This document shows positions 12,350-12,659 of a stretch of 13,411 bases of DNA, one piece after another. The DNA lies in the IMG/VR virus record IMGVR_UViG_2548876950_000004, positions 1 through 13,411 of that record; one strand, given 5' to 3'. The number at the start of each line of letters is the position of its first letter. Positions within the stretch are counted from its first letter, which is position 1. The DNA comes from a virus. Lineage: Duplodnaviria; Heunggongvirae; Uroviricota; Caudoviricetes. The notes beneath the pieces were generated by a model. The model did no database searches. It was not told the DNA's origin and was given only the letters and a program-made list of their open reading frames with translations. The translations under genes were made by a program, and so were the position numbers.

Positions 12350-12425
12350 GGCCCTTTAGCTCAGTGGTGAGAGCGAGCGACTCATAATCGCCAGGTCGCT
12401 GGTTCAAATCCAGCAAGGGCCACCA
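12350..12425 (+). tRNA. tRNA with CAU anticodon (Ile2/Met type, ileX-like)
   Basis: Cloverleaf by hand: acceptor GGCCCTT/AAGGGCC, anticodon loop CTCATAA, T-loop TTCAAAT, 3' CCA. Close to the host ileX sequence as I recall it. Confidence 0.7.
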
Positions 12426-12426
12426 A

Positions 12427-12503
12427 CCGCCACTAGCTCATCAGGAAAGAGCGTCAACCCTTTAAGTTGAGTGTGCGAGGTTCGAGTCCCCGGTGGCGGT
12501 CCA
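12427..12503 (+). tRNA. Atypical tRNA-like gene, anticodon UUU (Lys-like), possibly a pseudo-tRNA
   Basis: Acceptor CCGCCAC/GTGGCGG with CCA end, D-arm and TTCGAGT T-loop present, but C at position 33, a C1:G72 start and one T-stem mismatch. Confidence 0.45.
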
Positions 12504-12505
12504 GT

Positions 12506-12581
12506 GCCGACTTAGCTCAGTAGGTAGAGCAACTGACTTGTAATCAGTAGGTCACCAGTTCGATTCCGGTAGTCGGCACCA
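12506..12581 (+). tRNA. tRNA-Thr (UGU)
   Basis: Acceptor GCCGACT/AGTCGGC, anticodon loop CTTGTAA, T-loop TTCGATT, 3' ACCA; one T-stem mismatch. Confidence 0.65.
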
Positions 12582-12584
12582 TAT

Positions 12585-12659
12585 GCGGGCATCGTATAAT
12601 GGCTATTACCTCAGCCTTCCAAGCTGATGATGCGGGTTCGATTCCCGCTGCCCGCTCCA
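12585..12659 (+). tRNA. tRNA-Gly (UCC), glyT-like
   Basis: Acceptor GCGGGCA/TGCCCGC, anticodon loop CTTCCAA, T-loop TTCGATT, 3' TCCA; matches my memory of host glyT. Confidence 0.75.

Follow-up and report, generated by a model that had tools for sequence, protein, structure and literature searches.

The four tandem tRNA genes in our 13,411-nt window (the whole stretch of DNA that was analyzed) appear to be a small tRNA operon that is complete in itself; it belongs to a lambda-like E. coli prophage and is lodged in the late-region slot that lies between the Q and lysis genes. As far as sequence can tell, the cassette is a mosaic descendant of the ileZ-argN-argO cluster of stx phages. Its first gene (tRNA1) is stx-phage ileZ, its second (tRNA2) an argN derivative with an anticodon loop turned from Arg UCG to Lys UUU, and its third and fourth (tRNA3 and tRNA4) exact captured copies of host thrU (ACA) and glyT (GGA) that replaced argO. 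The explanation we favor, with modest confidence and at somewhat less than an even chance, is that tRNA2 is a nuclease-insensitive Lys tRNA in a mosaic operon with three rare-codon tRNAs.

Organization of the tRNA locus

ARAGORN and Rfam identified four plus-strand tRNA genes at positions 12350–12659, with the anticodons CAU, UUU, UGU, and UCC (Table 1). ARAGORN called exactly four on this strand, and all of them exceeded the gathering score of 29 bits for the Rfam family RF00005, with E-values (7e-7 to 6e-15) far beyond chance, which establishes as real the tandem array that a first-pass annotation had proposed. Antisense Rfam matches labeled 'Plastid-ycf2' are the same tRNAs read from the opposite strand. 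The CCA end is encoded in all four genes, and the spacers between successive tRNAs measure 1, 2, and 3 nt, as had been claimed. tRNA1, tRNA3, and tRNA4 have U8, A14, G18G19, U33, a purine at position 37, U54-U55-C56, A58, and the 3' CCA.

Table 1 Features of the tRNA operon; positions are those of the window
Feature	Position	Strand	Basis
Sigma-70 promoter-like site, TTGATT-17 nt-TATTAT	12311..12339	+	Promoter scan
tRNA1, tRNA-Ile2, anticodon CAU	12350..12425	+	ARAGORN; Rfam 72.5 bits
tRNA2, Lys anticodon UUU on argN (tRNA-Arg UCG) scaffold	12427..12503	+	ARAGORN Lys(ttt); Rfam 44.4 bits
tRNA3, tRNA-Thr(UGU), exact copy of host thrU	12506..12581	+	Rfam 73.8 bits
tRNA4, tRNA-Gly(UCC), exact copy of host glyT	12585..12659	+	Rfam 64.9 bits
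Structured 205-nt trailer, three long hairpins	12660..12866	+	Folding energy, conservation
Intrinsic terminator, GCCCGC-TTTT-GCGGGC + T run	12867..12890	+	Terminator scan

A Q-like gene (DUF1133/antitermQ) extends to 10176, and a holin gene of the S21 type begins at 12952. The earlier placement of the array between Q and the lysis genes holds in this broad sense, but about 2.2 kb with other genes separates Q from the tRNAs. This interval contains isrK/C4 RNAs, an ORF6N antirepressor-like gene, and an AraC-type regulator (11608–12321), the gene directly upstream of the tRNAs.

The operon layout, with promoter and terminator predicted, is a promoter, four tRNAs, a structured trailer, and a terminator. 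The −10 hexamer of the promoter-like site is separated by 10 nt from the mature 5' terminus of tRNA1. Nearly every related locus has, ahead of tRNA1, TTGCAA, TTGCAG, or TTGATT followed by 17 nt, TATTAT, and a further ~10 nt, and this geometry persists in differing sequence surroundings. In the 933W record a promoter, pT, is annotated at the equivalent place, and we consider the site in the window a putative promoter and the counterpart of this tRNA promoter. Downstream of tRNA4, positions 12660–12900 fold with a minimum free energy of −85.4 kcal/mol (z = −5.2 relative to shuffles). The trailer is conserved in 69 of 87 four-tRNA loci, variants also being present; a comparison with Rfam detected no known RNA family and no degenerate fifth tRNA in it, nothing coming near the gathering threshold. 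The predicted terminator marks the end of the tRNA unit, ahead of the holin gene. A homologous terminator stands directly after argO in loci ordered ileZ, Lys-variant, argO, and the 933W record has an annotated terminator after its tRNAs. The suggestion that the four tRNAs are processed from a single transcript is plausible given their tight packing, the conserved promoter-like site 10 nt upstream, and the terminator downstream.

Relationship to stx-phage and host tRNA genes

The ileZ-argN-argO cluster of stx phages (933W, Stx2a_F349, Nil3) is found in the same slot, after Q and before the lysis genes, and shares with the cassette its pT-type promoter geometry, a homologous terminator, an identical ileZ, and a second gene on a common scaffold (81–84% identity). 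The two differ in that the second gene has UUU with C33 here and UCG with U33 in stx phages, in the replacement of argO (UCU) by the host-derived thrU and glyT, in the added structured trailer, and in the absence of stx genes after the cassette. The first-pass annotation had set these anticodons apart from the Ile/Arg/Arg set of stx phages. The anticodons do differ, but the sets are related: tRNA1 is ileZ itself, tRNA2 derives from argN, and only argO was replaced, by exact copies of thrU and glyT.

tRNA1 is identical at 76/76 positions to the ileZ genes of Stx2a_F349, 933W, and Nil3, and has 89% identity to K-12 ileX, the change at pair 6:67 being compensated. PGAP labels it tRNA-Ile, and its body is ileX-like, as expected of tRNA-Ile2, rather than of the Met or fMet type. 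It is presumed to be lysidine-modified and hence to read AUA, not Met.

tRNA3 and tRNA4 match K-12 thrU at 76/76 and K-12 glyT at 75/75 positions, and the homology extends precisely to the ends of the mature tRNAs and no further. In the host these genes belong to the thrU-tyrU-glyT-thrT-tufB operon, with which the cassette shares the thrU and glyT sequences at 100% identity; unlike that operon, the phage lacks tyrU, thrT, the host spacers, and the flanks. Both tyrU and the two host spacers are thus missing between the phage copies, which lie 3 nt apart. In 10–11 related loci an acceptor-stem pair of tRNA4 is changed from C:G to U:A, a compensated substitution. The cassette shows the slot to be modular: tRNAs are exchanged there as precise units of mature-tRNA size. 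Lambdoid tRNA genes at this place are classically regarded as serving the rare codons of phage and virulence genes.

Of 5,426 complete E. coli genomes, 603 (~11%) contain the cassette, annotated as Ile, Lys, Thr, and Gly, and the isolated phage PhiR47_1 has it too. Among 119 viral loci, the architecture CAU-UUU-UGU-UCC was found in ~95, CAU-UUU-UCU in 12, and CAU-UCG-UCU in 6; we interpret the second as an intermediate and the third as the classic arrangement. In an exact-match scan of species-representative genomes, the anticodon arm of tRNA2 occurred only in E. coli and Shigella flexneri. The literature searched on stx-phage and prophage tRNAs yielded no description of a Lys(UUU)/C33 gene.

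Structure and ancestry of tRNA2

tRNA2 carries U34-U35-U36, the anticodon of tRNA-Lys(UUU), on a body that points to argN. Its identity to argN is 84%, compared with 61% to E. coli lysT and 56% to T5 tRNA-Lys, and its discriminator base is U73 rather than A73, which speaks against descent from a Lys lineage. Twelve positions differ from argN. Five of these are in stems, where all five changes keep or improve pairing and one is a double change of G30:C40 to A:U, while the loop has been rewritten from CUUCGAA to CCUUUAA by two anticodon changes plus the change at position 33. Between the window and Stx2a_F349, the adjoining tRNA1 differs at 0/76 positions and tRNA2 at 12/77 (Fisher p = 3e-4). 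An underpowered covariation test of the tRNA2/argN family, on 14 alleles, gave no significant signal: it found one doubly changed pair, a result matched by 141 of 500 shuffles, and so speaks neither for nor against the fold.

The C33, the C1:G72 first pair, and the T-stem mismatch that had been noted in the first pass are all visible in the cloverleaf, which has the anticodon loop C32-C33-U34-U35-U36-A37-A38, the mismatch A51·C63, U73, U15/G48, and C16. All near-universal elongator bases are there except U33, which is C, and among the conserved tertiary-interaction bases U33 is likewise the sole exception in the main allele. The covariance-model score of tRNA2 is the lowest of the four, 20–30 bits under its neighbors, but it lies above the model's threshold (44.4 vs 29 bits), contrary to the refuting condition set in the first pass.

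C35 is the major determinant for ArgRS, and the anticodon bases U34-U35-U36 are the main identity set for LysRS. We rejected mischarging of tRNA2 by ArgRS on these established identity rules, C35 being gone: ArgRS should be unable to use tRNA2 because C35 has been lost, and LysRS would charge it through the anticodon bases. The putative identity switch resembles alloacceptor remoulding, or tRNA gene recruitment, in which a tRNA gains the anticodon of another family and keeps its body. Remoulded mitochondrial tRNAs are other examples, and in an E. coli experiment an anticodon point mutation reportedly turned tRNA-Arg(UCU) into tRNA-Thr(UGU). tRNA2 differs from such cases in being phage-borne and in having two anticodon bases and position 33 changed.

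Codon usage

Relative to the host, phage genes are 2–5 fold enriched in AUA, ACA, and GGA. Per 1000 codons, ATA occurs 2.3 times in the host and 7–11 times in phage genes, ACA 5.3 and 10–16 times, and GGA 6.0 and 13–17 times; AAA is not enriched (34 in the host, 33–40 in phage genes). Compensation of codon bias, one of the roles put forward at the outset, therefore accounts for the Ile, Thr, and Gly tRNAs and not for the Lys tRNA. We infer that tRNA1, tRNA3, and tRNA4 are ordinary rare-codon helpers: Ile2, Thr(UGU), and Gly(UCC) would boost the decoding of A-ending codons that are rare in the host and commoner in the phage. A separate candidate function, that Gly(UCC) and Lys(UUU) serve tail-gene frameshifting at a lambda-type G-T −1 site, G GGA AAG, was dropped; the end of the G gene of PhiR47_1 has neither GGGAAAG nor an A-run heptamer.

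Correspondence of tRNA2 with tRNA-cutting nucleases

The anticodon UUU of tRNA2 is that of the tRNA targeted by PrrC and PARIS, and the gene is substituted at positions that matter to these nucleases, namely 39–41 and 16 for AriB and, at the PrrC cleavage site, position 33. Cleavage by AriB, the PARIS nuclease, is abolished by U39A and impaired by A41C and U16C, and the resistant T5 tRNA-Lys has UAAACC at positions 36–41 together with C16 (PMC12409363). tRNA2 has UAAGUU at positions 36–41 where the host has UAAUCA, and C16 where the host has U. By sequence it is without the published PARIS/AriB determinants U39, C40-A41, and U16, and escape from AriB would follow from their loss.

The cut made by PrrC falls between positions 33 and 34 (PMC2275089), and PrrC is said to require ct6A37 (PMC12409363). 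In another tRNA context, E. coli TsaBCDE no longer forms t6A once U33 is changed to C (PMC8887486). The tRNA2 loop cannot fit the t6A37-receiving pattern C32, U33, U36, A37, A38, having C33 instead, and by analogy C33 would block t6A37 formation by the E. coli enzymes. C33 sits at the PrrC scissile bond (33|34) and would at the same time act as an anti-determinant for a modification that PrrC reportedly needs. Infection in the presence of PrrC170 is rescued by a phage tRNA-Lys (PMC11555353). A role against tRNA-targeting host defenses, also raised in the first pass, gains specific support because of this published nuclease work.

In the explanation that we favor, tRNA2 would be a spare decoder of AAA and AAG unseen by host nucleases directed at tRNA-Lys, and may in this way escape host tRNA-cutting defenses. 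Its closest parallels are nuclease-resistant phage tRNAs: T5 tRNA-Lys(UUU) against PARIS AriB, a phage tRNA-Lys against PrrC170, and the tRNA-Thr(UGU) genes of T4, Bas32, and HK446 against P2 OLD. Like them, tRNA2 shares its anticodon with a nuclease-targeted host tRNA, and it is substituted at the AriB positions 39, 41, and 16. T5 tRNA-Lys, however, is a genuine homologue of tRNA-Lys, with A73 and U33, whereas tRNA2 has an Arg scaffold with U73 and C33; tRNA2, a candidate for such resistance, belongs to a temperate phage; and its Thr and Gly companions are host-identical copies rather than variants. These copies retain U36AAUCA41, the AriB site, as in the host, and cleavage is expected to affect them no less than the host tRNAs. 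A lack of t6A37, a U73 where tRNA-Lys has A73, and C33 may each lower the charging or decoding of tRNA2. In the literature searched, we found no experiment on cleavage resistance of tRNA2 or on rescue of infection by it.

Allele diversity and alternative explanations

The flanks of the cassette are mosaic, making an all-flank comparison of diversity misleading, and we therefore limited the comparison to 68 loci (53 haplotypes) whose downstream DNA is homologous. In this set, the diversity of tRNA2 (0.022) matched that of downstream non-coding DNA (0.011–0.020) and was 2.5–3 times higher than that of the other three tRNAs (0.007–0.009). The first-pass idea of a pseudo-tRNA gains support because of these data. 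tRNA2 could be a weakly functional or non-functional relic, an argN copy with a drifted anticodon loop that is carried inside a useful compact operon and may still aid RNase P/RNase E processing of its neighbors, only Ile2, Thr, and Gly mattering as rare-codon decoders. We judge this somewhat improbable but a serious rival, because tRNA2 varies no less than adjacent non-coding DNA and is decayed in some lineages. Several such decays are independent: the tRNA2-type gene of the 12 ileZ, Lys-variant, argO loci has a 1-nt D-stem deletion, Stx2c phages have a copy with the anticodon arm deleted, and a U8C allele occurs in 15 loci. A Yersinia phage relative, less canonical still with A33 and C37 in its loop, is annotated as a pseudo-tRNA, and PGAP leaves out tRNA2 in some genomes. 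The low covariance-model score, C33, the A51·C63 mismatch, and U15/G48 point the same way, as does the lack of AAA enrichment, which leaves no codon-supply need for tRNA2. Against this, pairing is preserved at all five stem positions that differ from argN, the double compensatory change among them, and the tertiary bases other than U33 are intact in the main allele. This allele, the one in the window, is the commonest and is identical in 64/119 viral loci across mosaic flanks. Arriving at exactly UUU moreover took two anticodon changes while the adjoining ileZ stayed 100% identical, which is unusual for drift.

A stronger version of the nuclease explanation, that the cassette is purpose-built against tRNases, strikes us as unlikely. 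It would combine an Arg tRNA remoulded into a Lys decoder, with evasion through C33, positions 39–41, and position 16, with a promoter of its own and extra copies of Thr(UGU) and Gly(UCC), which are tRNAs that P2 OLD, PARIS, and HepS deplete.

It is quite unlikely, in our estimation, that the whole cassette is mainly a dosage device that replenishes tRNase-depleted tRNAs, with codon supply secondary. The tRNases in question restrict lambdoid phages: P2 OLD targets Thr UGU and Gly UCC, PARIS targets Lys UUU and Thr UGU, and HepS targets Thr. Of the seven main targets reported for OLD and PARIS, three are represented among the four anticodons (hypergeometric probability ~0.012), an overlap statistic that is post hoc and would be confounded if tRNases evolved against the decoders of phage-favored codons. 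HepS, which senses lambdoid tail tips, cuts tRNA-Thr(UGU) as well (PMC13043305), the temperate phage HK446 has an OLD-resistant tRNA-Thr(UGU), and the cassette has its own putative promoter. However, the Thr and Gly copies are host-identical, AriB site included, and over-expression of E. coli tRNA-Thr(UGU) gave phages no rescue from P2 OLD (preprint 10.64898/2026.07.10.737580). The measured codon bias predicts the same anticodons equally well, and T4 has Thr UGU and Gly UCC tRNAs too. T4 also carries an Ile CAU tRNA, and its Ile, Thr, and Gly species are classically ascribed to codon supply.

Very improbable is a non-decoding decoy, a tRNA-Lys look-alike that would bind PrrC, RloC, or AriB without being cut and so act as a competitive inhibitor: the combination of a Lys anticodon with changes at the PrrC scissile position and the AriB determinants would suit it, and competition by over-expressed viral tRNAs has been raised by others as a possibility for AriB (PMC12409363), but tRNA2 lacks the AriB contacts at 16 and 39–41, so that binding is not expected, and with OLD, the sole case tested, a resistant viral tRNA left the host tRNA unprotected, supplementing rather than inhibiting (preprint 10.64898/2026.07.10.737580).

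Since PrrC and PARIS both act on Lys tRNA, tRNA2 offers a concrete and cheap test case for nuclease-insensitive tRNAs in temperate phages, and its C33, which would prevent t6A37 in E. coli, poses the question of whether the base serves evasion or betrays decay. If the cassette were built against tRNases, tRNA genes would serve as counter-defense in temperate phages too, beyond large virulent ones, and resistant tRNAs could arise on the scaffold of another isoacceptor through a switch of its identity. Should tRNA2 be inert, this would still be useful to know, as pipelines call it tRNA-Lys in hundreds of genomes. A candidate precedent, a Gifsy-1 tRNA resisting HepS, proved unsupported by the published work examined; Gifsy-1 escapes HepS via its tail-tip variant.

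A four-tRNA cassette and its predicted transcription unit

Four tRNA genes (tRNA1 to tRNA4, hereafter the cassette) stand in tandem in the window, a piece of a lambda-like prophage, and ARAGORN, run on the whole window, found no further tRNA gene. They are separated by 1, 2 and 3 nt, and all four encode CCA. The cluster is a real feature: ARAGORN and the Rfam tRNA model bore out the four genes, spacing and anticodons read in the first-pass annotation, and even tRNA2, suspected there of being a pseudo-tRNA, scored above the model's gathering score of 29. Its reported oddities, C33, a C1:G72 first pair and a T-stem mismatch (A51·C63), are all present in the cloverleaf, which also has U73, U15/G48 where a Levitt pair is usual, and the anticodon loop C32-C33-U34-U35-U36-A37-A38. 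The remaining near-universal bases are kept (U8, A14, G18G19, A37, U54-U55-C56, A58).

Features in and around the tRNA cassette
Feature	Position	Strand	Placement	Evidence or description
473-aa ORF	6134-7555			Sole Pfam match a C-terminal DUF551 domain
hok/sok type I toxin-antitoxin locus	7852-8176			sok, 112.6 bits; 70-aa Hok/Gef ORF at 7964-8176
Q-like gene	ends 10176		Upstream of tRNAs	DUF1133 and weak antitermQ match
Promoter-like site (TTGACT-18-TATATT) and isrK/C4 RNAs	10173-10396		Upstream of tRNAs, right after Q-like gene	
ORF6N antirepressor-like gene	10450-11031		Upstream of tRNAs	
AraC-type regulator gene	11608-12321		Upstream of tRNAs	AraC-type HTH
Sigma-70-like promoter site (TTGATT-17-TATTAT)	12311-12339		Ends 10 nt 5' of tRNA1	Promoter scan
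tRNA1, CAU	12350-12425	+		ARAGORN; Rfam 72.5 bits
tRNA2, UUU	12427-12503	+		ARAGORN; Rfam 44.4 bits
tRNA3, UGU	12506-12581	+		ARAGORN; Rfam 73.8 bits
tRNA4, UCC	12585-12659	+		ARAGORN; Rfam 64.9 bits
Structured 205-nt trailer	12660-12866		Between tRNA4 and terminator	Three long hairpins
Strong intrinsic terminator	12867-12890			Terminator scan
S21-type holin gene	12952-13167		Downstream of tRNAs	

The promoter geometry upstream of tRNA1 (TTGCAA, TTGCAG or TTGATT, 17 nt, TATTAT, ~10 nt) recurs in nearly all related loci, including those with divergent neighbouring sequence, and the record of stx phage 933W annotates a 'pT' tRNA promoter at the equivalent place. The terminator is homologous to one directly 3' of argO in three-tRNA versions of the cluster. 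From these signals we infer that the cassette would be transcribed and processed as a unit of its own. The trailer, conserved in 69 of 87 four-tRNA loci, has a very stable predicted fold (minimum free energy -85.4 kcal/mol, z = -5.2) and no Rfam match; it might serve in processing or yield a 3'-derived sRNA.

Origins of the four genes

The closest known system is the ileZ-argN-argO cluster of stx phages, which has the same slot, promoter, terminator and first gene. tRNA1 is identical to ileZ at 76/76 positions (89% to K-12 ileX) and is labelled tRNA-Ile by PGAP; on this homology it is a tRNA-Ile2, predicted to read AUA, and not a Met tRNA. tRNA2 shares 84% identity with argN of Stx2a_F349 and 81-82% with the 933W and Nil3 argN genes, but only 61% with E. 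coli lysT and 56% with T5 tRNA-Lys, which places it by sequence in the argN lineage, not that of Lys tRNAs. Three of its 12 differences from F349 argN fall in the anticodon loop (U33C, C35U, G36U), and the five stem differences all keep or improve pairing (U7·G66 to C:G, G3·U70 to G:C, U27·G43 to U:A, and a double change of G30:C40 to A:U). Between the window and Stx2a_F349, ileZ differs at 0/76 positions and tRNA2/argN at 12/77 (Fisher p = 3e-4). The F349 argN (locus L002, 2582-2658) itself carries G3·U70, a classical alanine identity element, and U7·G66; in 933W and Nil3 these pairs are G3:C70 and U7:A66.

In place of argO stand two host genes, tRNA3 and tRNA4 being 100% identical to thrU and glyT, respectively. 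Homology to the host thrU-tyrU-glyT operon (L126, 2389-2748) ends precisely where the mature tRNAs do; the cassette has neither tyrU nor the 8-nt and 116-nt host spacers nor either flank, and only TAT separates the two genes. The tRNAs thus seem to enter the slot as precise mature-length units. The anticodon set had been said to differ from the Ile/Arg/Arg of stx phages, which is right for the second anticodon and the replaced third gene, whereas the first gene is ileZ and the second retains the argN scaffold under its new anticodon and C33. In the literature searched, we found no description of argN-to-Lys remoulding with C33 or of thrU and glyT being captured at exactly mature length.

Distribution

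An exact-pattern scan of viral contigs recovered 119 loci, ~95 of which have the CAU-UUU-UGU-UCC architecture (89 with identical 1, 2 and 3 nt spacing) and six the classic CAU-UCG-UCU order. Twelve have CAU-UUU-UCU, an intermediate architecture whose Lys variant retains the U70 of argN and has lost one D-stem base; in most of these (L095, for example, is of this type) the adjoining argO lacks an encoded CCA. The most frequent tRNA2 allele is that of the window (64/119); C33 is kept in all UUU alleles, with position 32 variable (C, U or A). The cassette, counted where a match covered at least 80% of the query, occurs in 603 of 5,426 complete E. coli genomes, and the annotations of hundreds of genomes already include the cluster. 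The tRNA2 anticodon arm, sought in species-representative genomes, was found in E. coli and Shigella flexneri only.

Possible functions of the cassette

Codon counts per 1000 codons in 35 K-12 genes were compared with those in PhiR47_1 early genes, PhiR47_1 late genes and the ORFs of the window. ATA (2.3 vs 7.1-11.4), ACA (5.3 vs 10.1-16.0) and GGA (6.0 vs 12.7-17.0) are enriched in the phage sets, and AAA is not (34.2 vs 33.1-40.5). The earlier suggestion of codon-bias compensation therefore holds for Ile2, Thr(UGU) and Gly(UCC) as decoders of rare A-ending codons but leaves Lys(UUU) unexplained. The host encodes tRNA-Lys several times over, with five copies in the lysT region alone.

We tentatively favour a mixed explanation, in which the Ile2, Thr and Gly tRNAs would be rare-codon decoders and tRNA2 a nuclease-insensitive Lys tRNA. 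LysRS depends mainly on the anticodon and ArgRS requires C35, which tRNA2 has lost; by these identity rules tRNA2 would be charged by LysRS, not ArgRS. Cleavage by AriB, the PARIS nuclease, is abolished by U39A and impaired by A41C and U16C, and the resistant T5 tRNA-Lys has UAAACC with C16 (PMC12409363; PMC11464382). With UAAGUU at positions 36-41 and C16, tRNA2 has none of the mapped AriB determinants. The PrrC cut in tRNA-Lys falls between positions 33 and 34 (PMC2275089), a site we adopted after this older primary literature, although PMC12409363 gives 35/36; in sequence, tRNA2 is unlike host tRNA-Lys at the scissile position. Against a PrrC system, infection is rescued by tRNA-Lys genes that phages carry (PMC11555353). 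U33C in an E. coli tRNA abolishes t6A37 formation by E. coli TsaBCDE (PMC8887486), and ct6A37 is a stated PrrC requirement (PMC12409363). tRNA2 resembles nuclease-insensitive phage tRNAs of the T5 tRNA-Lys kind and may be one of them. Absence of t6A37, U73 and C33 could equally cripple its charging or decoding.

That tRNA2 is instead a relic is a serious alternative, which we consider somewhat less likely, and the evidence on constraint is mixed. Its stem changes are compensated, its fold is intact, and in its common alleles stems are changed only by C-to-U opposite G. Against constraint, a formal covariation count was not significant; nucleotide diversity across 53 haplotypes with homologous downstream DNA is 0.022 in tRNA2, compared to 0.009, 0.008 and 0.007 in tRNA1, tRNA3 and tRNA4 and 0.011-0.020 in the non-coding trailer; 15 loci carry a U8C allele; and the degenerate copy in Stx2c phages (Stx2c_JNE072859; L133, 290-380) has lost its anticodon arm. 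Also against constraint, a relative in Yersinia phage YeP1 (MK733259.1), 81% identical and annotated there as tRNA-Pseudo-TTG, has the loop CAUUGCC (A33, C37). Unusual anticodon loops seem to arise readily on this scaffold. Downstream of this gene in YeP1 (L132, 601-902) lie an Ile2-like CAU tRNA and a Gly(UCC) tRNA, also between Q and holin.

Dosage counter-defence by the whole cassette appears improbable. P2 OLD, which restricts lambda and HK97-like phages, leaves cells depleted of Thr(UGU), Gly(UCC), fMet, Val(UAC) and Pro(UGG) (preprint 10.64898/2026.07.10.737580). Lambdoid tail tips are sensed by HepS, a nuclease whose Thr tRNA substrates include UGU (PMC13043305). Of the four cassette anticodons, three belong to the seven main targets of OLD and PARIS (post-hoc probability ~0.012). 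However, this overlap is confounded with codon bias, the Thr and Gly copies match the host genes exactly and retain the AriB site, and over-expression of E. coli tRNA-Thr(UGU) gave no phage rescue from OLD (preprint 10.64898/2026.07.10.737580), for which reasons we rank it under the mixed explanation. A decoy role for tRNA2 is very improbable.

Genomic setting

The tRNA region is matched at 100% in E. coli Z1323CEC0019, in a degraded prophage adjoining ttcA/intR (the Rac site), and the isolated phage PhiR47_1 carries the same cassette. The position reported for the window's cassette, between Q and the lysis genes, is broadly correct, but the Q-like gene is 2.2 kb distant. Behind that gene, the promoter-like site is followed by isrK (Rfam, 69 bits, with its own terminator), the c4 a1/b1 targets, the C4 antisense RNA and then the ORF6N gene; together these are a P1/Gifsy-type immI-like module at the place of lambda pR'-6S RNA-tR'. 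The AraC-type gene (44% GC, with abundant AGG, ATA and GGA codons) runs directly into the tRNA promoter, whose -35 region lies in the 3' end of the gene, an upstream arrangement common to only 6 of the 119 viral loci. The 473-aa ORF has as its counterpart in Z1323CEC0019 broken pseudogene fragments.
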